The notes under the pieces: generated by a model | The model's input: the letters and a program-made list of their open reading frames with translations, nothing else | Told to the model about the DNA's origin: nothing | Database searches by the model: none | Shown: piece after piece, positions 1-10,640 of the stretch | Numbering within the stretch: position 1 is the first letter of the stretch | Layout: the number at the start of each line of letters is the position of its first letter | Source of the DNA: a virus | Lineage: Duplodnaviria; Heunggongvirae; Uroviricota; Caudoviricetes | Strand: one strand, 5' to 3' | Length of the DNA stretch: 10,640 bases | IMG/VR virus record: IMGVR_UViG_2541047125_000015 | Made by a program: the position numbers and the translations under genes

Positions 1-51
1 TAATTCCTGGCTAAACATCAAAAAGGCGACGTTGCCAGCGTATCCGGCACG

Positions 52-237
52 ATGCAGGTCAGCCAGTGGACCGGACAGAACGGGGAAACGCGGCAGGGTT
101 ATCAGGTTATTGCAGACAGCGTAATCAGTGCCCGTGCGGCACGTCCTGGTGGGAGCCGACGCAAGACCACAGGCACACAGGGTAATCAGCCACCAGCGGG
201 AGGCGATGACCCTTACGGTGATGATATTCCGTTCTGA
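52..237 (+). CDS. SSB-like C-terminal fragment (single-stranded DNA-binding protein tail); probably a truncated or disrupted ssb
   Basis: ORF ends ...PPAGGDDPYGDDIPF, the acidic DDIPF tip typical of bacterial and phage SSB. Upstream residues QWTGQNGETRQGYQVIADSV align by eye with the E. coli SSB segment KWTDQSGQDRYTTEVVVNV. An in-frame TAA sits at 1..3 and there is no Shine-Dalgarno before ATG52, so this is not a normal full-length ssb. Confidence 0.45.
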   Translation: MQVSQWTGQNGETRQGYQVIADSVISARAARPGGSRRKTTGTQGNQPPAGGDDPYGDDIPF

Positions 238-249
238 GGGGTGGGGACG

Positions 250-522
250 ATGGTACATGACCGCATAGCGGAAGAACTGGAGGCGAAAGGCTTTTACCGG
301 AGAGCGTCGGCGCGATGGGGTGAAGTCATGCAACTGGTGGAGACAGACAAGGAACGGCATCAGGTTACGATGCGACGGCTGGAATGTTCCAGGAAGGCAC
401 AGAGGCCACCGGAGCCGCCGGATAATTACGGAGACCTGAAAAAGGCGGTCGATCGCACTTATGCCGAAATGGGTATGGATGGTGCTGGTGATGAAATATG
501 GCGAAATTACCAGGACAGATAA
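250..522 (+). CDS. PerC-family transcriptional regulator-like small protein
   Basis: 91 aa from ATG250 (track start GTG241). MVHDRIAEELEAKGFYRRASARWGEVM...DKERHQVTMRRLEC fits the E..LE.KG.WRRAA.RW...D.ER.....RR..C pattern I recall for prophage PerC-like proteins. Recalled from memory, not searched. Start lies 13 nt after the SSB-like stop. Confidence 0.6.
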   Translation: MVHDRIAEELEAKGFYRRASARWGEVMQLVETDKERHQVTMRRLECSRKAQRPPEPPDNYGDLKKAVDRTYAEMGMDGAGDEIWRNYQDR

Positions 523-529
523 TCACACA

Positions 530-550
530 GCCGGAGCAATCCGGCTTTTT
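530..550 (+). terminator. Rho-independent terminator after the PerC-like gene
   Basis: GCCGGA-gcaa-TCCGGC hairpin followed directly by TTTTT, starting 8 nt after the TAA at 520..522. Confidence 0.55.
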
Positions 551-570
551 GTCATGTTTTGTAAATTATT

Positions 571-600
571 TGTTCGTGGTTGTTCCACGTTGTTCGCTGA
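571..600. repeat. Three helically phased TGTTC(G/C) direct repeats
   Basis: tgttcgtggt / tgttccacgt / tgttcgctga: TGTTC begins at 571, 581 and 591, exactly 10 bp apart. The same motif recurs at 8248 and 8258. Confidence 0.5.
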
Positions 601-672
601 CCGGATCGGCATATTTTACCCGAACTGAATCATGATTATTCTCGCCCGTGGTGCCAGGACGCTGGGGCCACT

Positions 673-719
673 TTCCCGCCTGTTAATGTGCTCGCCAATA
701 TTCATTACCAGGCGGGAAA
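673..719. promoter_or_regulatory. 16-bp imperfect inverted repeat upstream of the capsid gene
   Basis: ttcccgcctgttaatg (673..688) and cattaccaggcgggaa (704..719) are reverse complements with one mismatch, separated by 15 nt; no T-tract follows, so it is not a canonical terminator. Confidence 0.4.
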
Positions 720-809
720 ACGATCGGTGCGATTGCTGATTTCCTTATGAAAAACGGTTGAGTGTTTGCCGCGTCCTGGAGTTCCTTACTTAACTTCAGG
801 ACTTTTTTT

Positions 810-1967
810 ATGCCGAGAATAATCGAATTACGCCAGCAGAAAACCGCCATTAAAAATCAGATGCGCGACATGCTGGAGAACGCGGAAAAAGAAAACCGCA
901 GCCTTAACGATGCTGAGGGCGCAAAATTTGACGAATTACGCGCTAAAGCTGAATCCCTCGATAAAGACATCTCCCGCCTTGAGGCCGTTGCTGACGAAGA
1001 GCGCAGTAAACCAGGCAAAAACAGCCAGACCACTGACCCCGCCGAACTACGTCACTACATTCTGACAGGTGAAACCCGCGCATTGAGTACAGGCGTTCCC
1101 GCTGATGGTGGTTATACCGTTATCCCCGAACTGAACACCGAAATCATGCGAATGCTGACGGATGAATCCACCATGCGCCGCATCTGTACCGTGAAGAAAA
1201 TCAGCAGCAACGAGTTTAAGCAGCTTGTTTCCGCTGGCGGTGCGACCGTTAACCACGGTGAAGAGGGTAAGGCACGCGAACAGACCAGCACCCCGCAGAT
1301 TAACGAGGTGAGCATTAAGCTGTATCCGGTCTATGCGTACCCGCGCACCACGCAGGAAATCGTGGATTTTTCCGATGTGGACATCCTTTCATGGCTGACG
1401 GGCGAGATTGGCGACACCTTCACGGAAACCGAAGAAAGCGATCTGGTTGTGGGCGACGGTGACAAAAAAGCAAAAGGTTTTTTATCCGTACCCCGTGCAG
1501 AGAAGAACGACAAAGAGCGTGATTTTGGTACGTTGCAGGTAATTAAACCTTCCGAATCTCTGGCGTGGACATCTGCGGACCCGCTGATCGACCTGAAATT
1601 TGCATTACGTAAAAAATACCGCAAAAACGCGGTTTGGGTGGTTAACTCCACGACGGCGGCAAAACTCCAGAAGGTGAAGAACGCGAACGGTGATTACATC
1701 TGGCGCGACCGTTTACAGGCGGGTGATCCTGATACGTTGCTGGGCCTTCCGGTCGAATATCTGGAGTTTATGCCTGATAACGTTATTGCCCTGGGTGACT
1801 TCAAACGCGGTTACTACATTGTTGATCACGAAACAGGTGTTCGCACCAGACCGGACAACCTCACAGAGCCGGGCTTTATCAAAATTTTCACGCAGAAATA
1901 TTTAGGCGGTGGCGTGGTGGATTCGAACGCTATAAAGATTCTGGAACTGCCGCAGGACGACGATTAA
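810..1967 (+). CDS. Phage major capsid protein, HK97 family
   Basis: 385 aa from ATG810 (track ORF starts at GTG762; ATG810 has a better-placed SD-like cagga). N-terminal charged coiled-coil delta-like segment, then a large domain with motifs typical of HK97-fold capsids (ADGGYTVIPEL..., GDFKRGYYIVDH). Length and position next to the protease fit. Confidence 0.9.
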   Translation: MPRIIELRQQKTAIKNQMRDMLENAEKENRSLNDAEGAKFDELRAKAESLDKDISRLEAVADEERSKPGKNSQTTDPAELRHYILTGETRALSTGVPADGGYTVIPELNTEIMRMLTDESTMRRICTVKKISSNEFKQLVSAGGATVNHGEEGKAREQTSTPQINEVSIKLYPVYAYPRTTQEIVDFSDVDILSWLTGEIGDTFTETEESDLVVGDGDKKAKGFLSVPRAEKNDKERDFGTLQVIKPSESLAWTSADPLIDLKFALRKKYRKNAVWVVNSTTAAKLQKVKNANGDYIWRDRLQAGDPDTLLGLPVEYLEFMPDNVIALGDFKRGYYIVDHETGVRTRPDNLTEPGFIKIFTQKYLGGGVVDSNAIKILELPQDDD

Positions 1968-1976
1968 CAGCACACC

Positions 1977-2006
1977 GAAGGGGCTAAAAAGCCCCTTCTC
2001 TGTTTT
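1977..2006 (+). terminator. Rho-independent terminator after the capsid gene
   Basis: GAAGGGGC-taaaaa-GCCCCTTC (8-bp perfect stem) followed by tctgtttt, 10 nt after the capsid stop. Confidence 0.7.
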
Positions 2007-2021
2007 ACAGGTGAAAAAATT

Positions 2022-2579
2022 ATGATGAGTATGGAAATCCGGTCATCGGAAATCACCACCAGCGGCAGCAACACGCTTACGGGCTACGTTGTTCGCTGGG
2101 ATAACCTTTCAGAACTGCTATGGGGCGAATTTTACGAAAAATTCCAGCGGGGGGCGTTTACTGAATGGCTTGCGGTGGGTAATGACGTTCGCGGCCTGTA
2201 TGAGCATGACCACAGCATGTTACTGGGGCGCACCCGTTCCGGTACGCTGAGACTGGAAGAGGATGACACAGGGTTACGTTTTGAACTGATCCCACCGGAT
2301 ACCAGCACAGGGCGGGACGTTATCGAACTGGTTAAACGTGGTGACATCTCGGGCATGAGCTTTGGCTTTCGTTCCCGTAAGGATGTATGGGATACGACAG
2401 TCGATCCATGTGTGCGTACTGTACTGATAGCGGAACTGTACGAAATTACCGTGACATCCGTACCGGCTTACCCTGATTCCGGCGTGGAGCTGGCCCGCCG
2501 TTCCCTGTATGAGCAGCACCCTGAAAAAATGCCTCGTGCGGATAATCGCCGCTGGTGGGCGGATTTAGCGGGGGTGTGA
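2022..2579 (+). CDS. Prohead (maturation) protease, HK97 family
   Basis: 185 aa; GYVVRWDNLSE...RGLYEHDHSMLLGRTRSGTLRLEEDDTGLRFELIPPDTSTGRDVIELVKRGDISGMSFGF is the conserved core of HK97-type prohead proteases. SD-like aggtga 8 nt upstream. Confidence 0.9.
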   Translation: MMSMEIRSSEITTSGSNTLTGYVVRWDNLSELLWGEFYEKFQRGAFTEWLAVGNDVRGLYEHDHSMLLGRTRSGTLRLEEDDTGLRFELIPPDTSTGRDVIELVKRGDISGMSFGFRSRKDVWDTTVDPCVRTVLIAELYEITVTSVPAYPDSGVELARRSLYEQHPEKMPRADNRRWWADLAGV

Positions 2580-2580
2580 T

Positions 2581-3792
2581 ATGTGGCCTTTCAGAAGAAA
2601 AAAAGAGCAGCGCAGCATGACGCTTGATGAGTTTATGGCGCTGGCTGGCACATCGAACACGGGGGCGGGTGAGTACGTATCATCGGGGACAGCGGAATCA
2701 CTGCCCGCCGTCATGAACGCCGTCACGGTCATCTCTGAGGCGGTGGCTACCATGCCGTGTTACCTGTACCTGGTACGCAATGAGAAGGGGAAGGAGGCCC
2801 GAGAGTGGCTTGATTCTCATCCGGTCGATCACATCCTCAACGAGCGCCCGAACGCATGGCAAACCCCCTACCAGTTTAAGCGAATGATGATCCGCCACTG
2901 CCTGTTAAACGGTAATGCTTATGCGGTGATTCGGTGGGGGCGTGATGGTTTTCCGGTGGCTTTACATCCTTACCCGCCGCAGTCGGTGAACGTGGAGCAG
3001 ACAGGTGAGCATAACTGGCGCTACTGCATCACTGACGCCTACACCGGAAACACCCGCAACTATTTACCGTGGGAGGTTCTCCACCTTCGTTACTCCACGG
3101 ATGACGGTTTTATGGGGCGCTCACCTGTAACCATCTGCCGCGAATCGCTGGGGCTTGGGCTGGCCCAACAACGCCACGGCGCGAGCGTGATGCGTGATGG
3201 CATGATGGCGGCAGGGGTTATCACGTCAGGCGAGTGGCTGGACGGCGTGAAGGGTAAACAGGCATTAGCCGCACTGGAACGCTACAAAGGGGCCAGAAAC
3301 GCCGGAAAAACGCCCATCCTTGAAGGGGGTATGAGCTATCAGCAGCTGGGCATGAGTAATCAGGATGCTGAATGGCTGGCCTCCCGTCGCTTCACCATTG
3401 AAGACATCGCCCGAATGTTCAACGTCTCGCCGATTTTTTTGCAGGAATACAGCAACAGCACCTACAGCAATTTCAGCGAGGCAAGCCGCGCATTTCTCAC
3501 CATGACGATGCGCCCGTGGCTGGCGAACTTTGAGCAGCAGATAAAAAACGCCCTGCTGGTGGCCTCGCCTGTACCTGGTATCCGGTATCAGGTGGAGTTT
3601 GACAGCGCGGACCTGTTACGGGCCACACCTGGCGAACGCTTTGCCACCTATGAACGCGGCATCAAATCCGGCGTTATGTGCCCGAACGAAGCCCGCGAAC
3701 GTGAAGGGCTGTCCCCGCGTGATGGTGGTGATGAGTTCAGCCAGGCATGGAAACAGGAAGTAAAAATCAGCGAGGGAGAAAAACCGGAATGA
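2581..3792 (+). CDS. Phage portal protein, HK97 family
   Basis: 403 aa; portal-like blocks (LPAVMNAVTVISEAVATMP, NGNAYAVI, FTIEDIARMFNVSPIFLQEYSNSTYSNFSEASRAF). Start is 1 nt after the protease stop. Confidence 0.9.
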   Translation: MWPFRRKKEQRSMTLDEFMALAGTSNTGAGEYVSSGTAESLPAVMNAVTVISEAVATMPCYLYLVRNEKGKEAREWLDSHPVDHILNERPNAWQTPYQFKRMMIRHCLLNGNAYAVIRWGRDGFPVALHPYPPQSVNVEQTGEHNWRYCITDAYTGNTRNYLPWEVLHLRYSTDDGFMGRSPVTICRESLGLGLAQQRHGASVMRDGMMAAGVITSGEWLDGVKGKQALAALERYKGARNAGKTPILEGGMSYQQLGMSNQDAEWLASRRFTIEDIARMFNVSPIFLQEYSNSTYSNFSEASRAFLTMTMRPWLANFEQQIKNALLVASPVPGIRYQVEFDSADLLRATPGERFATYERGIKSGVMCPNEAREREGLSPRDGGDEFSQAWKQEVKISEGEKPE

Positions 3793-4127
3793 ACATAGGG
3801 CGACTGCGTGACAGGATAACGATTCAGACCCTGAAACAGACCAGGGATATAACCGGCGAAATACTCGAAACGTGGGTGGACGGTCACACACTCTGGGCAA
3901 GCGTGAACATGATCAGCAGCAAGGAGGCCATTTCATCGGGTGCAGAACTGGCGACTGGAACGGTAAGGATATGGATACGCTACAGGAAGGACATCAACGC
4001 CACCAGCCGGATAAAGGTCAATACGGGGCCGCTGGCGGGGCGTGTACTGAATATCATCGGGCAGCCGCTGCCGGATGCCGCCAGGACACGCCTTGAAATT
4101 CTTTGTCGTGAGGGCGCGGAAAAATGA
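3789..4127 (+). CDS. Head-tail adaptor / head closure protein (SPP1 gp16-like head-tail joining family)
   Basis: 113 aa from ATG3789, which overlaps the portal stop as ATGA (track ORF starts further upstream at 3747 inside the portal). RDRITIQTLKQTRDITGEILETWVDGHTLWASV...VRIWIRYRKDI...RLEILCRE matches the family pattern R.RI.I....TRD..G...E.W....WA.V ... IRYR.DI. Confidence 0.75.
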   Translation: MNIGRLRDRITIQTLKQTRDITGEILETWVDGHTLWASVNMISSKEAISSGAELATGTVRIWIRYRKDINATSRIKVNTGPLAGRVLNIIGQPLPDAARTRLEILCREGAEK

Positions 4128-4420
4128 CAGAAGAACTTATCACCCTGGAAGAAGTGAAACTCCATTGCCGCATCGATGGCGACGAGGAAGACCAGTTAAT
4201 CAGCGGATACATCGCCGCATCGCTTGAGGCGTGCCAGATACACATAGGCAGGCGCTTTGATGACGGGCTGGAGTTCACGCCAGCCATAAAGATTGGCTGC
4301 ATGATGTTTATCGCTCACCTGTATGAAAATCGCCAGATTGTCGCGGATAACGCAAAAACACGCGTACCCATGACGATTGGTGCACTCTGGACGGCTTACC
4401 GTGATGTGGGGGTGTACTGA
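4124..4420 (+). CDS. gp6-like head-tail connector protein
   Basis: 98 aa; LITLEEVKLHCRIDGDEEDQLISGYIAASLEA is the characteristic N-terminus of gp6-like connector proteins. Start overlaps the adaptor stop by 4 nt. Confidence 0.8.
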   Translation: MTEELITLEEVKLHCRIDGDEEDQLISGYIAASLEACQIHIGRRFDDGLEFTPAIKIGCMMFIAHLYENRQIVADNAKTRVPMTIGALWTAYRDVGVY

Positions 4421-4860
4421 TGCCGTGGCAACCATTAAGACGATGCACAGAACCAGGCTGTAACAGGCGCGTGAAGTCCGGCAAGTGTGAGGAGCACAGG
4501 CGGGCGGCATGGCGTGCAGAGGATGCCAGACGAGGACACCGCCGCGCGCGTGGGTACTCCAGACAGTGGGACAAATACCGCGCCATGTATCTGAGTAAAA
4601 ACCCGTTATGCGTGCGATGCCTTGAGAAGGGGATATATACGCCCGCCGTGGTGGTGGATCACATTATCCCGATTAATGGCGGTGATGATGTTCTCTTCTG
4701 GCCCGAATGGAACCATCAGCCATTGTGCCAGGCGTGCCATAACCAGAAAACGAAATGGCTTGATCCGGCAACAAAAAGCAAGCGTGCCGCAGGTGGATTT
4801 CGTGAAGAGGAAGAACGGGCCGCTAACCGCAATAACTGGATGTATGACGCTGATGAATGA
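4420..4860 (+). CDS. HNH endonuclease (phage packaging-associated)
   Basis: 146 aa; Cys-rich N-terminus (CTEPGC...GKCEEH), then VVDHIIPI...NHQPLCQACHNQKT, the HNH His/Asn and zinc-binding Cys/His pattern. Sits immediately upstream of terS as in HK97-like phages; start overlaps the connector stop by 1 nt. Confidence 0.85.
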   Translation: MPWQPLRRCTEPGCNRRVKSGKCEEHRRAAWRAEDARRGHRRARGYSRQWDKYRAMYLSKNPLCVRCLEKGIYTPAVVVDHIIPINGGDDVLFWPEWNHQPLCQACHNQKTKWLDPATKSKRAAGGFREEEERAANRNNWMYDADE

Positions 4861-5026
4861 GCGGGAACAAAACCGCCTTATCCGTGGACTTATAAGGCAG
4901 CGTGACGCATGGAAGACACAGGAAACAGGGCATAAAGATAAAGCGTCAGGACGCGCAGAACGCATCACAGCGAAGCGATTAACCGACCGTGACTGCGAGG
5001 TTATGGAATGTTTCCGCAATCGCTGA
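4844..5026 (+). CDS. Possible small basic ORF between HNH and terS (uncertain)
   Basis: Only the distal 60 codons of track ORF 4622..5026 lie outside the HNH gene. ATG4844 or ATG4853 would give about 58-61 aa (MNEREQNRLIRGLIRQRDAWK...). No convincing SD; may be non-coding cos-flanking DNA. Confidence 0.2.
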   Translation: MTLMNEREQNRLIRGLIRQRDAWKTQETGHKDKASGRAERITAKRLTDRDCEVMECFRNR

Positions 5027-5037
5027 TGAGGCTGTAT

Positions 5038-5082
5038 GACGGGGTGGGGGGCGTTTTCAGGACAAACCCGCCCCCGCCGGGC
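5038..5082. promoter_or_regulatory. Candidate cos / terminase recognition region (G-run and C-run dyad)
   Basis: gacggggtggggggcg ... cccgcccccgccgggc; gggggcg (5047..5053) is complementary to cgccccc (5069..5075). It lies in the 288-bp gap between HNH and terS, where HK97-like phages place cos. An AT-rich stretch follows. Confidence 0.3.
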
Positions 5083-5148
5083 ACCGAACGCCTCCTCAAA
5101 TTTTTATGCACGGGAATTTTTTGAAAAATAATCTGACGAAAAATAAAC

Positions 5149-5505
5149 ATGGCAAGACCACCGAAAGCCCCCGCCTACCTTGATGACATCGCCGTAAAGC
5201 AGTGGCGGGAAAAATCGCGCCAGCTTGCGGAACGGGGAGACCTCACCCCCGCCGACTGGAGTAATCTCGAACTGTATTGCGTCAACTACTCGATATACAG
5301 GAAAGCCGTCGCAGACCTTGCGGCACGCGGGTTCAGCATTGTTAACAGTCAGGGCGGAGAGAGCAGAAACCCCGCATTAAGCGCGAAATCCGACGCTGAA
5401 AGAGTGATGATAAAAATGGCCTCCTTGCTTGGTTTTGACCCGATAAGCCGCCGTAAAAATCCACCGGAAACAGAAGAAGAGGACGAGCTTGACCACCTGG
5501 AATAA
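5149..5505 (+). CDS. terS: Terminase small subunit, P27 family
   Basis: 118 aa; LTPADWSNLELYCVNYSIYRKAVADLAARGF...NPALSAKSDAERVMIKMASLLGF fits the P27-type small terminase pattern, and it sits directly upstream of terL. Confidence 0.85.
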   Translation: MARPPKAPAYLDDIAVKQWREKSRQLAERGDLTPADWSNLELYCVNYSIYRKAVADLAARGFSIVNSQGGESRNPALSAKSDAERVMIKMASLLGFDPISRRKNPPETEEEDELDHLE

Positions 5506-7150
5506 GTACGCAGAAGACGTAAAAACGGGCAAAATTCCGGCCTGTAAACGGTTAAAACAGGCCGTTAAACGGTACTTTTCGGACCTTAAAAGTCCCCTTT
5601 ACACGTTCGATAGTGAGGTTGTGGAGCGGTTTATTGCCTTTTCAAGGGTGTGCCCGCACGTAAAAGGGCCGTTGCGTGGCAGACCCATTGAGCTGGAGCC
5701 GTGGCAGCAGTTCGCCTTTGCGTGCATCCTGGGTTTTAAGGTTAAGGCCACCGGACGGCGCAAATACTCGAGCGCTTTTATCGAAGTACCGCGAAAAAAT
5801 GCGAAATCCACGACCGCCGCGATTCTGGCTGACTGGTTTCTGATTATGGAGAACGGGCAGCAGGATATTTACACCGCAGCGGTGAGCCGTGACCAGGCAC
5901 GGATCGTGTTTGATGATGCGCGTCAGATGTGCCTTTTATCCCGACCGTTACGCAGGCGGGTGAATATTCAGGCCCACAAGGTGATACACCCGAAAACCAA
6001 CAGCCTGTTAAAGCCGCTGGCAGCAAAAGCGGCAACCATCGAGGGGACAAACCCGAGTCTTGCCATTGTGGACGAATATCACCTGCACCCCGATAACGGC
6101 GTTTATTCCGCGCTTGAGCTGGGGATGGGTGCACGTCCCGAAGGGCTGTTATTTGCCATTACCACATCGGGAAGTAACGTCGTTTCAGCCTGTAAGCAGC
6201 ACTATGATTATTGCTGCCAGATCCTGGACGGCGAAGAGGTCAACGAATCGCTTTTTGTGCTGATTTACGAGCTGGACGATGAAAACGAGGTTGACGATCC
6301 GGCGATGTGGATAAAGGCGAATCCCAATATCGATGTTTCCGTTGATCGTGAAAAACTGGCCTCAACCATCCAGAAAGCGCGGGGTATTCCGTCGCAGTGG
6401 GTGGAGATGATGACAAAGCGGTTTAACATCTGGTGCCAGGGGGCCACCCCGTGGATGGGTAACGGGGCGTGGGCTGAGTGTGCCGGAACGTTCACGGAGG
6501 AGGATTTACACGGCCAGGAATGTTACGCGGGGCTTGATTTGTCATCCACAAGCGACATTTCCAGCGTGTGCTATGCCTTTCCGGTCGGCAAAAAAATTAT
6601 GCTGCTTTCCCGTCACTATCTGCCGGAATTTCAGCTACAGAACCCCGCCAACAAGAACCGGGCCATTTATCGCCAGTGGGCTAAATCGGGCTGGTTGCGG
6701 ATAACGCCGGGCGACTGCATTGATTACGACCGGATCCGCGATGACATCATGGAGGACGCGGAAAAATTTGATATCAGGCTGGTGGGCTTTGATACGTGGA
6801 ACGCCACGCATCTCAGGACGCAATTACAGGGGGCAGGGTTTGAGGTTGAGCCGTTCCCGCAAACCTATCTGAGATTCAGTCCGGCGGCGAAATCGTTCGA
6901 AGTTTTTGTTAACCGCAGGGTGATAGTCCATCGTGATGATCCGGTGTTGTCGTGGTCGATGAGTAACGTCGTGATGCAGAGTGACGCGAACGCCAATATC
7001 AAGCCAAACAAGAAAAAATCACCGAACAAGATAGACCCGAGCGTGGCGGCACTGATGGCGTTTGGCACATTCCAGGCAGAGCATGAAGATTTTGCTTTTG
7101 ATATAAGCGACAGCCACCGCGAAAAACTGGAAGAATTTAACGGGGTGTGA
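5489..7150 (+). CDS. terL: Terminase large subunit
   Basis: 553 aa; an ATPase-like N-terminal region (PRKNAKSTTAA) and a nuclease-like C-terminal region. Starts at TTG5489, the only start codon after the in-frame stop at 5444..5446, with SD gagga 5 nt upstream. Overlaps terS by 17 nt. Confidence 0.9.
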   Translation: MTTWNKYAEDVKTGKIPACKRLKQAVKRYFSDLKSPLYTFDSEVVERFIAFSRVCPHVKGPLRGRPIELEPWQQFAFACILGFKVKATGRRKYSSAFIEVPRKNAKSTTAAILADWFLIMENGQQDIYTAAVSRDQARIVFDDARQMCLLSRPLRRRVNIQAHKVIHPKTNSLLKPLAAKAATIEGTNPSLAIVDEYHLHPDNGVYSALELGMGARPEGLLFAITTSGSNVVSACKQHYDYCCQILDGEEVNESLFVLIYELDDENEVDDPAMWIKANPNIDVSVDREKLASTIQKARGIPSQWVEMMTKRFNIWCQGATPWMGNGAWAECAGTFTEEDLHGQECYAGLDLSSTSDISSVCYAFPVGKKIMLLSRHYLPEFQLQNPANKNRAIYRQWAKSGWLRITPGDCIDYDRIRDDIMEDAEKFDIRLVGFDTWNATHLRTQLQGAGFEVEPFPQTYLRFSPAAKSFEVFVNRRVIVHRDDPVLSWSMSNVVMQSDANANIKPNKKKSPNKIDPSVAALMAFGTFQAEHEDFAFDISDSHREKLEEFNGV

Positions 7151-7164
7151 ATGAGGTTCCAGGC

Positions 7165-7446
7165 ATGACAGAGGCCGAAATACTGGGATTAATCCGCCGC
7201 GTTGCCGGAATCAGCCAGCAGGCTGACGAACAGGCCGCGCAGCCGGACAGCGTGACCGCCGAAAATTATGCGCGTGTGGTTGCTGAGGTGATGCGCCGTG
7301 ATGGTATCCAGCTTAACGATGTAGATATGCGCAACATACGGATCCGCGTTCTTGAAATGCTGGCCTACCGTCGCCGCGTTGAGATGTATCGGGAGAAAGA
7401 GAAAATTACTTACCACTGGAAGAAGCCGGAACGATTGCGGCGGTAA
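7165..7446 (+). CDS. Small hypothetical protein downstream of terL
   Basis: 93 aa from ATG7165 (SD gagg 8 nt upstream; track start GTG7147 overlaps the terL stop). Protein-like composition (MTEAEILGLIRRVAGISQQADEQ...RRRVEMYREKEK); no family recognised. Confidence 0.5.
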   Translation: MTEAEILGLIRRVAGISQQADEQAAQPDSVTAENYARVVAEVMRRDGIQLNDVDMRNIRIRVLEMLAYRRRVEMYREKEKITYHWKKPERLRR

Positions 7447-7461
7447 CTTGCTGATATTCCC

Positions 7462-7505
7462 GATAACGCAAAATTGCGCTGGCTGACTTGTTGCATTGCA
7501 AAAAG
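7462..7505. repeat. Direct repeat A, copy 1 (about 43 bp)
   Basis: gataacgcaaaattgcgctggctgacttgttgcattgcaaaaag. Shares GATAACGC..ATTGCGCTGGCTG...TGCA with copy 2 and contains the palindrome ttgcaTtgcaa. Confidence 0.55.
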
Positions 7506-7600
7506 TTAAGCAGGAAGGCACGGCCTGTAAGATGGGATGCAGTAAGTAGTTCAAGGCTACCTTGTGCTGGCACGCACAGTTAAGCCGTCGGTGCTGGATA

Positions 7601-7615
7601 TCCCCCACTGGGGGA
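7601..7615. promoter_or_regulatory. Perfect 15-bp palindrome TCCCCCA-c-TGGGGGA
   Basis: Read directly from the sequence; lies between the two A repeats. Confidence 0.5.
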
Positions 7616-7647
7616 AAAGCTGGCTACATCCCTCACATCTGAGGACT

Positions 7648-7690
7648 GATAACGCGACATTGCGCTGGCTGGCAAAGTGCAAAATTGCAC
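7648..7690. repeat. Direct repeat A, copy 2 (about 43 bp)
   Basis: gataacgcgacattgcgctggctggcaaagtgcaaaattgcac; roughly 70% identical to copy 1 by eye; ends in the palindrome gtgcaAAATtgcac. Confidence 0.55.
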
Positions 7691-7697
7691 GATGGCC

Positions 7698-7858
7698 TAA
7701 CCCATTGATTATTTCGAAAACCTGCAATGCAGGAAATCGGGGAAGTAAGCCTAAGCTATTGATTGTTTCGAAAACCCTCATTGGGGGATGTCGGGAAAGT
7801 AAGACTAACCCATTGATTCTTCCACAATCCTCAATTTGAGGAGGCAGGGAACATCCCC
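7698..7858. repeat. Tandem array of three ~53-55-bp direct repeat units (B1-B3), each with a TTTCGAAA-type palindrome and a short hairpin
   Basis: Units at 7698..7750, 7751..7805 and 7806..7858 share TAAcCcATTGATT - TTTCGAAAACC - 13-nt hairpin - G-rich tail. Hairpins: cctgcAATgcagg, ccctcATTggggg, cctcaATTtgagg. Confidence 0.65.
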
Positions 7859-7894
7859 TAAATCCGGTGATGTATTCGGCCCCTTTAACGGGTA

Positions 7895-7930
7895 TTGCGA
7901 TTTTCGCAACCCCCTACGAAATTTTCGTAG
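7895..7930. promoter_or_regulatory. Two adjacent dyads built on CGAAA/TTTCG half-sites
   Basis: ttgcg-atttt-cgcaa (7895..7909) and the perfect inverted repeat CTACGAAA-t-TTTCGTAG (7914..7930); same half-site as the TTTCGAAA cores of the B units. Confidence 0.45.
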
Positions 7931-7955
7931 TTTAATTACTCGTCAGATTAATCGC

Positions 7956-8007
7956 TAACCCACTGATATTTTCGGAAACCTCAATTTGAGGAGGCCGGAA
8001 CGTCTAC
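7956..8007. repeat. Fourth B-type repeat unit (B4), about 100 bp downstream of the tandem array
   Basis: taacccactgatattttcggaaacctcaatttgaggaggccggaacgtctac; same architecture, and its hairpin cctcaATTtgagg is identical to that of B3. Confidence 0.6.
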
Positions 8008-8240
8008 ATAGCTGCATCGCCGTAATGATGATTCAGCCCACCAGCCAAATCAGCACAGCAACGACAGAATAGCCCGACACAGAAAAACCACGAATATGGG
8101 GTTTTTGTTATGGCATGGTCATGATGACCGCCCCTGCTCTGAATGGTGGAAATCACCACGCAGATCATCAACCAGCTTCATGACGGATAGCCGGAAAATG
8201 ATAACGGTTAAGCAAAACCATCAGCAAATTTCCCTTTTGT

Positions 8241-8304
8241 TTGTTATTGTTCGTCGTTGTTCGTAGAGCTTCAACGAAATGTGTGGTCAGTTGTGTGGTC
8301 AGTT
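8241..8304. promoter_or_regulatory. Phased TGTTCGT repeats plus a perfect 12-bp tandem duplication just upstream of int
   Basis: TGTTCGT at 8248 and 8258 (10-bp phasing, preceded by ttgtttgttat); gtgtggtcagtt repeated exactly twice at 8281..8292 and 8293..8304, 36 bp before the int start. Confidence 0.5.
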
Positions 8305-8339
8305 TTTTGGGGCTGGAGGACTGAAAAGAGGATCTGATA

Positions 8340-9560
8340 GTGGGAAAAGCACTAAACAAACTGAGCGATTCGACATTAAAAAAATTGGCGGCTGTCCAGG
8401 CAGAAAAAGAGCGTTTTTACTCCGACGGGGGCGGGCTGGAGATTAAACACTCAAAAGGCGGAAAATTAACCTGGTATTTCCGGTACCGAACGGGAGGCCG
8501 TGAGGTTGCCGCAGAGCGGTTAAAGCTGGGGGCTTACCCTGAATTGTCGCTGAAAGCTGCAAGGGAAAAACGCGCACAGTGCCGGGCATGGCTGGCTGAG
8601 GGTAAAAACCCCCGTTATGAGTTGTGCGCCACAGTACAGGAAGCGCTAAAACCCGTTACGGTGAAGGAGGCGATTAACTACTGGCTGGAGGAATATGCGA
8701 AGGATAACCGCAAAGACTACATAAAGCTGGTGCAACGTATGGATAAGCACATCATTTGCCATATAGGGGCAATTCCTCTTGATAAATGCGACACAAGGCA
8801 GTGGATCGCATGTTTTGACCGTGTACGAAAAAAAGCACCAGTAGCAGCGGGGCACGTCATGCAAACCTGCAAACAGGCGCTAAAGTTCTGCCGCAGGAGA
8901 CGCTACGCGTTCAGTAATGCCCTGGACGATTTGATCGTCAGCGATGTGGGTAAGAGAGCAGAAATTCGCGAGAGGGTGCACAGTAACAGCGAATTAAAGG
9001 AAATTTTACGCGCTATTGATGGTGATGTGTTCGCGCCTTACTACAGCGCGTTAATGCGCTTGCTGATTGTGTTCGGGTGCAGAACTGCAGAGGTCAGACT
9101 TTCAGAGATCAAAGAATGGGATCTGAAAGAAATGTTGTGGACAGTGCCAAAAGAGCACAGCAAAACGAAGGTAACGATATTCAGGCCAATCCCCGATGGC
9201 ATTTTGCCGTTCATTCAGAAGCTGGTGGATCAGAACCGGCATACAGGGTTATTGCTCGGAGAACTGAAAAAAGATACCACGGTAGCGCAATATGGGCGAA
9301 ATGCGCATAAGCGGCTTAACCAGGAACATTGGTCACTGCATGACTTTCGCCACACGTTTACAACGATGCTGAACGATTTAGGTGTCGATCCGCATATCGT
9401 GGAGCACATCACAGCGCATCAGATGCCCGGTCAGCAAAAAACCTATAACCATTCACGCTATTTACAGGCGAAGCGGGACGCTCTGAATCTGTGGGTTGAG
9501 CGCCTCGATGTGCTGGCTGGAAATCATGAAAATATTGTTATGCTGAAGGTGGCCAAATGA
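8340..9560 (+). CDS. int: Tyrosine site-specific integrase, P4 type
   Basis: 406 aa from GTG8340 with SD aagagga upstream. N-terminal arm-binding-type region (LEIKHSKGGKLTWYFRYRTGGREV...LGAYPELSLKAAREKR) and C-terminal catalytic region with LHDFRHTF (H-x-x-R) and a downstream Tyr (KTYNHSRYL). Confidence 0.9.
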   Translation: MGKALNKLSDSTLKKLAAVQAEKERFYSDGGGLEIKHSKGGKLTWYFRYRTGGREVAAERLKLGAYPELSLKAAREKRAQCRAWLAEGKNPRYELCATVQEALKPVTVKEAINYWLEEYAKDNRKDYIKLVQRMDKHIICHIGAIPLDKCDTRQWIACFDRVRKKAPVAAGHVMQTCKQALKFCRRRRYAFSNALDDLIVSDVGKRAEIRERVHSNSELKEILRAIDGDVFAPYYSALMRLLIVFGCRTAEVRLSEIKEWDLKEMLWTVPKEHSKTKVTIFRPIPDGILPFIQKLVDQNRHTGLLLGELKKDTTVAQYGRNAHKRLNQEHWSLHDFRHTFTTMLNDLGVDPHIVEHITAHQMPGQQKTYNHSRYLQAKRDALNLWVERLDVLAGNHENIVMLKVAK

Positions 9561-10330
9561 AATTACCTAAAAGACTCTATTATCCGTTACCTGAAGCGGC
9601 AGAAAAGTTAGGCTGTGCAATAAAAGATCTTTATCATTACGCATATATAGGTGCTCTTAATATTTCTGTATATATACCAAAAATTGATGCTAAAAAATTC
9701 AATTTTTCATTATGTCATTTTATCAATGGTTGTAATGAGGAAGAATTAATAAAATATCCTTTCAATGATGAATCTGCTGTTTTTGGAAGTAATTTTACAG
9801 TTGGTTTAACTGGTGACACTGAATTTTTAGATAGTGCCATTATTGGTCCTGTAGGGAATTCTATCAAATGTTATTATGTTAGCAGCTTATCAGGGTTTTA
9901 TTATACTCCGGCATATGTTTTTGCTGATGTCGAATTTAGCATGAGACAATATATAAAATGTTCTCATCTTACGAATAAGTATGGTGATGATAATCTCATG
10001 TATGTTTTTTGTAAGGGTGGTTATGAATTTGATGTTAACTATTTGTGTGTGATGGCTAGTGATTTAGATAATATAAAAAATACGGGAGACTTCCCGAAGA
10101 TAACAGAAGATAGCCCAAAAGCATCGTCAAAAAGGAATGAGGTTATTTACTCTTTAATTAAACTTATTCCAGAAATGGGTGATGTAGACCTGGACACGGA
10201 ATCATTACCTAAAATAGCAGATTTAATTGATTCTATAGCTGCATCCAGAGGGATAGAATTTCCAAAAACACATTGGCAGACATGGCAAAAGTATTTGGGG
10301 CGTGAATCTCAACAAAAACGTAAAAAGTGA
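9557..10330 (+). CDS. AT-rich hypothetical protein (orphan cargo gene), translationally coupled to int
   Basis: 257 aa; ATG9557 overlaps the int stop as ATGA, with SD-like aaggtgg upstream. The DNA is visibly AT-rich (about one-third G+C by eye, versus about half in int) with AAA/ATT/TTT-rich codons. N-terminal RLYYPLPEAAEKLGCAIKDLYHYAYIG loosely resembles an AlpA/excisionase-type HTH; the rest matches nothing I recognise. Confidence 0.7.
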   Translation: MKLPKRLYYPLPEAAEKLGCAIKDLYHYAYIGALNISVYIPKIDAKKFNFSLCHFINGCNEEELIKYPFNDESAVFGSNFTVGLTGDTEFLDSAIIGPVGNSIKCYYVSSLSGFYYTPAYVFADVEFSMRQYIKCSHLTNKYGDDNLMYVFCKGGYEFDVNYLCVMASDLDNIKNTGDFPKITEDSPKASSKRNEVIYSLIKLIPEMGDVDLDTESLPKIADLIDSIAASRGIEFPKTHWQTWQKYLGRESQQKRKK

Positions 10331-10359
10331 TATCACGTGCTGGTAGTGTGATATCACAC
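10327..10359. promoter_or_regulatory. Two copies of the palindrome GTGATATCAC, 21 bp centre to centre (candidate operator)
   Basis: gtgatatcac at 10327..10336 (overlapping the orphan stop) and at 10348..10357, the latter within the 14-bp palindrome gtgtgatatcacac (10346..10359). Spacing is two helical turns. Confidence 0.5.
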
Positions 10360-10386
10360 AAACGGCGTTTTACTACCGCCTAGAAT

Positions 10387-10421
10387 CGTCCTCGTTCGGC
10401 AACGTTCGAGGACGTTTTTTT
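10387..10421 (+). terminator. Hairpin plus T7 tract abutting the alpA start codon (terminator or 5'-UTR structure)
   Basis: CGTCCTCG - 12-nt loop - CGAGGACG followed by ttttttt and then ATG10422. The 3' arm contains the only SD-like sequence (gagga) for alpA. Confidence 0.5.
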
Positions 10422-10640
10422 ATGAATCAAAATACACAATTTCAATCACTATCAGATCGCGTAATCCGTGAGGATGAATGCCGTAAGTTAACAGGAGTGT
10501 GCCGCACTACACGCTACGAACTGGAGAAAAAAGGGAATTTCCCGTCACGCCGTAATCTGGGTGGTCGTTCAGTAGGTTGGCTGCTTTCCGAGGTTATGGA
10601 ATGGGTTAAAAGCCGGGATCGTATTAATTCAGGCAAGGCA
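10422..10640 (+). CDS. alpA: AlpA-family phage regulatory protein (HTH), 3' end cut by the window
   Basis: MNQNTQFQSLSDRVIREDECRKLTGVCRTTRYELEKKGNFPSRRNLGGRSVGWLLSEVMEWV matches the AlpA/excisionase-like pattern (hydrophobic-R-x-x-E-x-x-x-x-TG-x-x-R-x-T-x-Y-x-x-x-x-x-G-x-FP...GGR.V.W...EV..W). The ORF runs to the last base of the window. Confidence 0.8.
   Translation, partial: MNQNTQFQSLSDRVIREDECRKLTGVCRTTRYELEKKGNFPSRRNLGGRSVGWLLSEVMEWVKSRDRINSGKA

Follow-up and report, generated by a model that had tools for sequence, protein, structure and literature searches.

The window, that is, the whole stretch of 10,640 nucleotides analysed here, is a circularly permuted capsid-forming PICI (cf-PICI) from Shiga-toxigenic E. 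coli. Its positions 4–8306 are 100% identical to positions 27512–35814 of L001, and its positions 8237–10640 are 100% identical to positions 19898–22301 of the same locus, with the two matches overlapping by 70 bp. Since the 70-bp att core stands at both ends of the island, the window represents the circular (attP) permutation of the element. An Rfam scan of the window returned no match. The gene at the center of this study, ORF257, is present as an identical allele in 47 genomes, from which the prototype strain EDL933 is absent. It lies in the following arrangement:

8237–8306, no strand assigned: att core, a 70-bp stretch found at each end of the island when integrated
8340–9560, plus strand: int, a tyrosine integrase of 406 aa (Arm-DNA-bind_3, E = 2e-18; Phage_integrase, E = 8e-17)
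9547–9560, plus strand: coupling junction, an AGGTGG Shine–Dalgarno-like motif in the 3' end of int followed by an ATGA start/stop overlap
9557–10330, plus strand: ORF257, 257 aa, between int and alpA
9557–9700, plus strand: ORF257 N-terminal domain (residues 1–48), a predicted excisionase/MerR-type winged helix-turn-helix
9701–10084, plus strand: ORF257 middle domain (approximately residues 49–176), β-rich and hypervariable between alleles
10085–10114, plus strand: ORF257 linker (residues 177–186), modeled with low confidence (pLDDT < 50)
10115–10330, plus strand: ORF257 C-terminal helical domain (residues 187–257 and the stop codon), of the 'TW.KYLGR' type with a basic tail
10327–10336, no strand assigned: O1, palindrome GTGATATCAC, which includes the TGA stop codon of ORF257
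10346–10359, no strand assigned: O2, palindrome GTGTGATATCACAC, with the core GTGATATCAC at 10348–10357
10381–10386, plus strand: TAGAAT, a −10-like hexamer and predicted element of the alpA promoter, directly abutting the hairpin
10387–10421, plus strand: terminator-like hairpin CGTCCTCG..CGAGGACG followed by T7
10422–10640, plus strand: alpA, truncated where the window ends (Pfam Phage_AlpA, E = 3e-16; annotated as a 74-aa HTH regulator)

The initial annotation, made from the letters of the DNA, had described a 257-aa frame at 9557–10330 that is translationally coupled to the integrase gene, and both parts of this description were confirmed. The ATG of ORF257 (9557–9559) overlaps the TGA of int (9558–9560) as ATGA, with the AGGTGG motif placed at 9547–9552. 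The same GGTG...ATGA junction recurs in the homologues from E. coli, Klebsiella and Providencia, and it also precedes the unrelated DUF6387 gene that occupies the slot in a related island. At the base composition of ORF257, the probability of a stop is 0.083 per codon and that of 257 sense codons in a row is 2e-10. Open stretches of up to 130 codons arose among 2000 shuffled sequences, and none of the five remaining frames over the gene is open for more than 57 codons. Thus, ORF257 is not a chance open reading frame.

Measurement also upheld the claim that the gene is far more AT-rich than its neighbors, with a GC content of 0.32 against 0.50 in int (0.323 with a GC3 of 0.213 against 0.495 with a GC3 of 0.553), 0.51–0.57 in the packaging genes and 0.508 in the whole window. 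However, the conclusion drawn from this break, namely a separate acquisition, fared less well. Low GC is a property of the whole ORF257 family: the slot gene has a GC of 0.38 versus 0.515 for int in Klebsiella, and 0.29 versus 0.39 in Providencia. Since the alternative DUF6387 occupant is equally AT-rich (0.32), composition is weak grounds for inferring recent arrival.

At the level of the protein, the earlier failure to recognize a family was reproduced by systematic searches. ORF257 had no match in Pfam, either as the whole protein or as each of its modules, even at E ≤ 10, and searches against NCBIfam, PHROGs and PADLOC yielded no family and at most weak helix-turn-helix matches; the sole match in PADLOC-DB was to mad1 (E = 0.015) over a 27-residue helix-turn-helix at residues 8–34. 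The family profile returned only noise against PDB sequences, and the HTH_17 and Phage_AlpA profiles did not match the protein. Profile–profile alignment with hhalign gave a probability of 0.1 against the AlpA alignment, indicating no relationship, and of 0.2 against DUF6387 (PF19924), for which there was likewise no profile match. The earlier suspicion of an AlpA/excisionase-type HTH at the N-terminus was nevertheless borne out at the level of fold, with residues 1–48 of the model matching the excisionase-type winged helix of Xis and AlpA proteins. This domain is the part common to even the most distant members of the family. The middle domain has neither a structural nor a sequence relative that we could detect, and the invariant residues G113, F114, E126 and L163 look structural. 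In the C-terminal helical domain, which is exchanged separately between alleles, no known DNA-binding fold was detected. The predicted models display no enzymatic, toxin, ATPase or transmembrane feature, and structure comparison found no effector-like match. We describe ORF257 as a member of an uncharacterized, putatively DNA-binding family.

A profile search recovered about 390 clusters of this family. We read 25 loci with a family member (some being duplicates of one contig), drawn from at least three genera, including Escherichia, Klebsiella and Providencia, and from metagenomes; all of them show the order int-X-alpA, where X is the family gene. Named organisms among the checked matches are all Enterobacterales, and the elements concerned are of several kinds: cf-PICIs and classical PICIs, along with one helper-embedded PICI and one relaxase-bearing element. 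The cf-PICI occupies the rcnR-thiM site, and the classical PICI the cspD-clpS site. An integrase gene lies directly upstream in every locus for which upstream sequence is available, and an AlpA-like gene lies downstream. The overlap with int is 4 nt in the close family; two distant members overlap it by 14 or 22 nt, and some loci have a gap of 100–320 nt instead.

The content of the slot, in turn, varies among related islands, as had been anticipated. Beside the same int (97% aa identity) and alpA (93% aa identity), the slot holds either allelic variants of the ORF257 family or an unrelated gene, a true DUF6387 member (PF19924, E = 1e-25); in islands with another integrase it is empty, leaving a 420-bp spacer. 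The DUF6387 gene resembles ORF257 in its identical position, its ATGA overlap with int and its AT-richness, but it is not homologous and no palindromes follow it. A DUF6387 gene adjacent to alpA has also been described in ICEKp258.2 (PMC10763509). Further, a second PICI carries ORF257, the palindromes and alpA as one block at 100% identity, although the integrases of the two islands are only 60–85% identical at the nucleotide level; ORF257 and alpA were exchanged between the two PICIs as a single block. Many PICIs, among them some whose alpA coding sequence is closely related, have nothing in the slot, yet inducibility is expected of them too.

AlpA is the master activator of Gram-negative PICIs, in which neither the means by which helper phages switch alpA on nor a global repressor has been identified (PMC6092414). 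Upstream of alpA, we found no good −35 element and no consensus-grade sigma-70 promoter. The putative −10 hexamer TAGAAT lies 23 nt past O2, and in the alignment the type-1 loci keep a hexamer 22–23 nt after O2, and six of the seven loci read have A as its second letter and T as its sixth; the putative −10 is overlapped by an in-frame ATG in some loci. The hairpin that follows has a minimum free energy of −19.1 kcal/mol (z = −3.5), and its right arm holds the alpA Shine–Dalgarno sequence GAGG (10408–10411). In a comparison of 12 loci, one of them the DUF6387 island, all seven of its consensus pairs showed compensatory changes.

Operator-like palindromes had been reported between ORF257 and alpA, and they take the form of two perfect 10-bp copies of GTGATATCAC with centers 21 bp apart, ahead of the alpA start at 10422. 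About 0.01 such palindromes are expected per window, and two copies arose in 0 of 200 shuffles. Comparison across loci shows conservation of both palindromes and variation in the spacer that separates them. The GTGAnnTCAC pair, with the stop codon inside O1, is present in all 14 loci that have a KYLGR-type C-terminus, one pair per island, and in none of the 11 others (second C-terminal type, 0/5; third type, 0/3; gene-less, 0/3). In the third type, GGAATATTCC occurs twice at the identical place and spacing in its stead. The second type displays no evident operator, and operator binding therefore cannot be a universal function of the family.

Two natural domain swaps single out the C-terminus as the correlate of the palindromes: P0050 combines a different middle domain with the same C-terminus and keeps them, whereas P0037 retains the N-terminus and middle domain, has another C-terminus and lacks them. 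Alleles such as the P0004 and P0006 types also share one identical C-terminus. Thus, the pair tracks the C-terminal type and not Int, AlpA, the N-terminus or the middle domain. The DUF6387 island is without palindromes even though its AlpA and Int are 93% and 97% identical to those of the window; likewise, between L090 and L092 (Int 86%, AlpA 72% identical), only the latter has them. AlpA or Int as the binder was rejected on these grounds, near-identical versions being found without palindromes and 56%-identical ones with them. The N-terminal helix-turn-helix is also disfavored as the reader, as its recognition-helix sequence does not divide the loci that have palindromes from those that lack them. 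From these comparisons of sequence we infer that the C-terminal domain is the candidate operator reader; its coding region adjoins the palindromes in the DNA, so that their co-inheritance could reflect linkage rather than recognition. No extra operator copies were found in the island or near the att core. A reverse scan of IMG/VR for the operator pair returned 64 loci. With 11-nt spacing, 8 of 11 loci belong to the ORF257 family; 42 loci with 12-nt spacing fall in a single unrelated group of ~55-kb phage contigs, in which an ORF257 homologue is absent. Hence, the motif by itself is not diagnostic.

Among known systems, the closest is iolg (integrase-overlapping gene) of the PICMI satellites of Vibrionaceae, whose function is not known (Barcia-Cruz et al. 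2024, PMC10803314). On this analogy, the gene class of ORF257 would already be named, and have a known phenotype, in another satellite family. In PICMI115, iolg lies between int and alpA with an ATGA overlap, is constitutively expressed with int, and is needed for the satellite to be excised, packaged and transferred upon helper induction (PMC10803314). The likeness to ORF257 is one of position and architecture only: both lie on the same strand between int and alpA; iolg overlaps the 3' end of int by 1, 4 or 13 nt, most commonly as ATGA, which is the overlap of ORF257 at 9557–9560; neither has a recognizable family; and both are diverse (13 families in PICMIs, swapped modules in the ORF257 family) and absent from some elements. 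In contrast, iolg is hosted by Vibrio and the ORF257 family by Enterobacterales, and PICMIs are minimalist satellites of virulent phages, whereas ORF257 resides in cf-PICIs and classical PICIs with temperate helpers. Neither the three-domain layout nor the pair of operators seen with ORF257 has been reported for iolg.

The N-terminus of ORF257 is modeled with the winged-helix excisionase fold, yet the protein shows no sequence-profile similarity to excisionase/AlpA/MerR-type proteins such as Pukovnik Xis (4j2n), RdfS (8dgl), the GIsul2 AlpA-family excisionase (8c3t) and P4 Vis. Moreover, excisionases and AlpA are single-domain proteins of 50–80 aa that act as recombination directionality factors, unlike the three modules and 257 aa of ORF257, and the gene directly after ORF257 itself encodes a genuine AlpA. 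With SaPI Stl, ORF257 shares a satellite origin, a similar size, a place adjoining int, a DNA-binding domain (putative in ORF257) at the N-terminus combined with island-variable regions, and a candidate role as the link from helper to induction. However, it has no homology to Stl and belongs to another helix-turn-helix class. Stl is divergently transcribed with its operators in the divergent intergenic region, whereas ORF257 is co-directional with alpA, has its sites at the 3' end, and is not a divergent Xre-type HTH repressor. The deletion phenotypes of Stl and PICMI iolg are opposite.

We consider it quite possible, and tentatively favor the reading, that ORF257 is part of the satellite's own integration/induction (AlpA switch) module, an enterobacterial counterpart of the iolg class, rather than cargo. 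The initial annotation had mentioned a novel regulator as its second option, and it is to this option that the constancy of the slot, the cognate palindromes and the block exchange with alpA point. Under such a scheme, ORF257 would be made alongside Int from the int transcript via the ATGA coupling and would act as a DNA-bound factor on O1/O2, between its own stop codon and alpA. Site recognition would come from the separately exchanged C-terminal helical domain, and the conserved Xis-like winged helix together with the hypervariable β domain would form the working or sensing part. By promoter prediction, the operators would be centered near −41 and −62 relative to TAGAAT, where ORF257 could gate expression of the master activator and excision factor AlpA and, through it, excision and helper-phage induction. 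The conserved hairpin, by hiding the alpA ribosome-binding site, would insulate alpA from read-through from int-ORF257. The role would probably be positive or licensing and needed for induction, if the deletion phenotype of PICMI iolg is a guide. Set against such a switch, the PICMI authors prefer a role in the excision complex over one in transcriptional control, and the slot can carry the unrelated DUF6387 gene or, in many PICIs, no gene at all.

The view closest to that of the PICMI authors is that ORF257 is a recombination accessory factor that joins Int and AlpA in an excisive/integrative complex at the att site through its Xis-like N-terminus, with the palindromes near alpA being incidental or merely parking or titrating the protein. 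The conservation of translational coupling to int throughout the superfamily is consistent with this, as are the winged helix being the sole universally conserved part and the type-2 members without an operator. Further, iolg is needed for PICMI excision, for which an Int–IOLG–AlpA complex has been proposed, and satellite transcription in PICMI115 is unchanged by AlpA in trans (PMC10803314). We nonetheless think it unlikely: two different palindrome pairs at the same place and spacing, co-varying with the C-terminal type, would be left unexplained, as would the travel of ORF257 with alpA rather than int; the same integrase works beside a DUF6387 gene, and other PICI integrases beside an empty slot; and palindrome copies are absent near the att core. 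Slightly less probable still is an Stl-like maintenance repressor, produced constitutively with Int and occupying O1/O2 to keep alpA off until a helper protein removes it via the middle domain. Co-expression with int in the quiescent state, a DNA-binding fold followed by a hypervariable, recombining middle with conserved flanks (comparable to the diversity of SaPI Stl), the abutment of O2 on the expected −35 region and the vacancy for a global repressor in Gram-negative PICIs (PMC6092414) would all suit it. Yet, if the analogy holds, the sole genetic datum for the class points the other way, as deletion of PICMI iolg abolishes excision instead of rendering it constitutive. In addition, many related PICIs are quiescent with an empty slot, the putative promoter without a −35 looks activator-dependent, and the operators lie upstream of the predicted core promoter, clear of the −10 and the start site.

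That ORF257 is anti-phage defense or abortive-infection cargo in a 5' accessory hotspot of the island, the first suggestion of the initial annotation, now seems improbable. Its strong AT bias, the variable slot with an unrelated alternative occupant, a hypervariable middle domain reminiscent of phage-sensing domains, and the frequent lack of a recognizable family among defense genes speak for it. The premise of a hotspot beside int held in part: immune systems are reported at the 5' or 3' ends of PICIs (PMC11364771), but the immune regions of cf-PICIs are expected before and after the packaging module and not in the int-alpA slot (bioRxiv 2025.02.11.637232). No defense family was matched beyond the short PADLOC hit, no enzymatic or toxin-like domain appears in the models, and the invariant residues seem to serve structure. 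The place beside int and alpA is strictly kept from one genus or element type to the next, cognate cis sites accompany the gene, and ORF257 was exchanged in one block with alpA. An AT-rich orphan beside a satellite integrase is therefore not automatically defense cargo.

Returning to the switch module, a more specific and speculative version, which we regard as unlikely, is that ORF257 is the helper-phage sensor of Gram-negative PICIs, a constitutive transcription factor anchored to O1/O2 through its C-terminal domain, whose hypervariable middle domain recognizes a helper product and so turns alpA on. Were this so, helper specificity would be encoded in a swappable middle module, and the requirement for iolg in PICMIs and the phage induction of alpA would share one answer. 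More generally, iolg of PICMIs is the one gene class shown to be necessary besides int and alpA (PMC10803314). The ORF257 family would add to it a large enterobacterial set with a defined three-module architecture, a predicted excisionase-like, putatively DNA-binding fold, and a candidate pair of binding sites before alpA that co-varies with one protein module. Finally, several family members lie in fis-site islands, with a contig beginning with the 3' end of fis, which is also the attachment site of PICMIs; a search of IMG/VR by the fis att repeat gave 14 loci, with one clear and one weak family member among them.

The slot between the integrase gene (int) and alpA is occupied by a gene for a 257-aa protein, here ORF257, which is preceded, four bases 5' of its ATG, by an AGGTGG motif. 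The features of this region are as follows:

9557-10330, + strand: ORF257, 257 aa, its ATG overlapping the int TGA as ATGA
10327-10336 and 10348-10357: O1 and O2, two perfect copies of the palindrome GTGATATCAC
10381-10386: -10-like hexamer TAGAAT, adjoining the hairpin
10387-10414: hairpin directly 5' of the alpA ATG, then T7; MFE -19.1 kcal/mol, z = -3.5
10422: alpA start

At ORF257's own base composition, the probability of 257 sense codons in succession is 2e-10, and the longest open stretch is at most 130 codons in shuffles and at most 57 in the other frames. The gene has a GC content of 0.323 (GC3 0.213), int one of 0.495 (0.553) and the window one of 0.508. Thus, the initial annotation was right in describing an AT-rich ORF translationally coupled to int and followed by palindromes and then alpA. 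Its failure to recognize a family was likewise confirmed: searches of Pfam, NCBIfam, PHROG and PADLOC returned nothing for ORF257 other than weak helix-turn-helix matches. An AlphaFold model, built with 19 homologues as input (mean pLDDT 78), predicts the following organization:

residues 8-48: N-terminal winged helix, pLDDT ~92
residues ~50-166: beta-rich middle
residues 177-186: disordered linker
C-terminus: bundle of three or four helices

A word-indexed search recovered 19 clusters of the ORF257 family, all those with a name being from Enterobacterales, and an exhaustive profile search extended this to 390 clusters at E <= 1e-3 (54 at E <= 1e-30). In all readable contexts, the gene is immediately preceded by that of a tyrosine integrase with Arm-DNA-bind_3 and immediately followed by an AlpA-like gene. 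The 4-nt overlap with int is shared across the close family (Klebsiella, Providencia, other E. coli alleles, metagenomic members and IMG/VR contigs); distant members overlap int by 14 or 22 nt or are separated from it by a short gap. The host elements include a classical 9-kb PICI, a PICI inside a prophage tape-measure gene and a relaxase-bearing element. Such a constant position is unlike the behaviour of randomly acquired cargo. The PICI beside the prophage tail tape-measure gene, in E. coli 2017.06.05CC (L094 3751-6019), encodes a 245-aa member with the 4-nt int overlap and is of the helper-embedded kind described in PMC10111431. On a metagenome contig (L097 232-5300), a distant relative with the winged helix alone in common follows an integrase in an element that also encodes NikA-like, MobC and relaxase proteins. 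Thus, this class of integrase-adjacent winged-helix genes reaches past phage satellites into mobilisable elements.

The family is also modular. Relative to the P0004-like alleles, ORF257 is 33% identical in the N-terminus, 13% in the middle and 93% in the C-terminus. The N-terminus and middle vary jointly between alleles and the C-terminus independently. Some relatives have just the N-terminus and middle in common, some just the C-terminus, and at the greatest distance the winged helix is all that is shared.

The O1/O2 pair (two copies of a palindrome of which ~0.01 copies would be expected by chance) follows this modularity closely. The first copy includes the ORF257 stop codon. Among alleles with the 'TW.KYLGR' C-terminal domain (type 1), a GTGAnnTCAC pair is present in 14/14 loci, with the stop codon inside the first copy and a centre-to-centre distance of 21-22 bp. 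None of the five loci with the second C-terminal type has this pair, and all three with the third type feature two copies of GGAATATTCC at the same position and spacing as in type 1. Islands with DUF6387 or an empty slot lack a palindrome pair, and no island with the pair has a further one. Two natural swaps show the same association: P0050 combines an unrelated longer middle with the KYLGR C-terminus and keeps the palindromes, and P0037 combines the family N-terminus and middle with the second C-terminal type and lacks them. We also considered whether the palindromes follow AlpA or Int. The AlpA and Int of the DUF6387 island are 93% and 97% identical to those of the window, yet it has no palindromes, and the Providencia AlpA is 56% identical, with perfect palindromes. 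The palindromes are conserved and the 11-12 nt spacer between them is not. Judging from these comparisons, the palindromes appear to belong to the C-terminal module. Linkage alone could yield part of this pattern because the C-terminal coding region adjoins the palindromes in the DNA; the third type, whose different palindrome follows an identical arrangement, favours recognition. The arrangement GTGATATCAC-N12-GTGATATCAC also occurs in an unrelated phage group without an ORF257 homologue (42 IMG/VR loci, L026-L089, mostly 35-60 kb contigs from metagenome 3300045988), where it is embedded in TGATATCA repeat arrays beside a consensus-like promoter; these sites are presumably operators of another repressor reading the same palindrome.

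The right arm of the hairpin upstream of alpA holds the alpA Shine-Dalgarno sequence, and in E. coli the hairpin, with T7 after it, is terminator-like. Compensatory changes were found in 7/7 consensus pairs across 12 loci, the DUF6387 island included. The hairpin recurs at the same position in L002, L006, L010, L015-L017, L019-L021, L090 and L092, being kept in L002 (the DUF6387 island) though this lacks the ORF257 family. The alpA leader has no promoter of consensus grade; the -10-like hexamer, TAGAAT in the window, lies 22-23 nt past O2 in type-1 loci. If it were the alpA -10 element, O2 and O1 would be centred near -41 and -62, and transcripts would begin in the left arm of the hairpin and hence lack it, while int-ORF257 read-through would be terminated and its ribosome-binding site hidden. 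In several loci (L002 3757, L006 6764, L014-L017), alpA could be extended in frame by 12 codons across the hairpin (MLLNNNEQEHLS-MNQ...) from an ATG overlapping the hexamer. This extension, absent in the window, may reflect a second start site or be a side effect of conserving the hairpin.

We surveyed the slot in a ranked spread drawn from the 431 E. coli genomes with a match to the region. Roughly one sixth carry an ORF257-family member and roughly one eighth DUF6387; in most, a related alpA body is all that corresponds, and a 420-bp spacer without a gene separates it from a different integrase. The slot is thus variable, as had been anticipated. The DUF6387 gene (L002 2718-3713; 331 aa), with a GC content of 0.32 as low as that of ORF257, fills this position with an identical ATGA junction, and its product proved unrelated to ORF257 on comparison; a DUF6387 gene also adjoins alpA in the Klebsiella genomic island ICEKp258.2 (PMC10763509). 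DUF6387 proteins may be another family of int/alpA partners, analogous to that of ORF257, and the contents of the slot look less like a random assortment than like a set of alternative partners for the int/alpA module.

ORF257 also moves together with alpA. A classical terS/capsid PICI at cspD/clpS in O157:H7 FRIK2533 (L093 12781-15208, compared with 9530-10640 of the window) has identical ORF257, palindromes and alpA behind a different integrase. Nucleotide identity to the window is 60-85% through int, 100% from ~9530 to ~120 nt past alpA, and ~85% thereafter, delimiting a 1.2-kb identical block shared by a capsid-forming PICI (cf-PICI) and a classical one. The two islands occur together in the strains MB41-1 and F8092B, suggesting that co-resident satellites exchanged the block recently. 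The exact allele is found in 47/5426 complete E. coli genomes, mostly of Shiga-toxigenic lineages.

The E. coli PICI and cf-PICI literature examined makes no mention of this gene. By position and ATGA overlap, the closest description is iolg of the Vibrio PICMI satellites, which lies between int and alpA and is of unknown function, as are all 13 families of PICMI int-alpA genes (PMC10803314). It is expressed constitutively with int, alpA being phage-induced, and a satellite deleted for it no longer undergoes helper-induced excision, packaging or transfer (PMC10803314). Several ORF257-family islands are on contigs that begin with the fis 3' end, which is where PICMIs attach.

These observations support the initial annotation's alternative of a novel regulator, and we consider it likely that ORF257 is part of the island's own control module. 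The specific mechanism that we consider the best explanation, at somewhat less than even odds, would make it a DNA-binding part of the AlpA switch, coupled to the integrase and of the iolg type. Its C-terminal module would hold it at O1/O2, and its role would probably be positive, i.e., induction would require it. [quoted passage not shown] The favoured suggestion of defence cargo, also a remaining rival, was not supported. According to the literature, immune systems are located at the 5' or 3' ends of PICIs (PMC11364771); in cf-PICIs, however, they are expected on either side of the packaging module (bioRxiv 2025.02.11.637232).

The remainder of the window comprises the following:

1-7446: HK97-type head and packaging set (major capsid, protease, portal, head closure, connector, HNH, TerS, TerL)
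8237-8306: att core, 70 bp, common to both ends of the integrated copy

The packaging set is followed by the integrase, ORF257 and alpA. E. coli O157:H7 MB41-1 has the same DNA at 100% identity as a 15-kb island flanked by rcnR and thiM, in the order int, ORF257, alpA, icd, primase, ssb, perC, and capsid through to terL; by this content and order, the island is a cf-PICI as defined in bioRxiv 2022.09.08.507074. Comparison with the integrated copy showed that 4-8306 is its right part and 8237-10640 its left part, the window being a circular permutation in which the right end of the island continues into the left. A tandem 12-mer, TGTGTGGTCAGT x2, lies within the att core at 8280-8303, at a distance of 37 nt from the int start, and the int promoter must therefore be within the att region or extend across it. 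The 99-aa ORF with which the packaging module ends (7147-7446; GTGA overlap with the terL stop) is without a Pfam family and is annotated in RefSeq as hypothetical with a later start. Between it and the att core, a 54-nt direct repeat occurs four times (7695-8006; copies 61-80% identical to the reference one), three times in tandem and each time with a short inverted repeat, and a separate 24-nt repeat lies at 7462-7485 and 7648-7671; cos/pac, arm sites or an origin are candidate roles for the repeats at 7462-8006.
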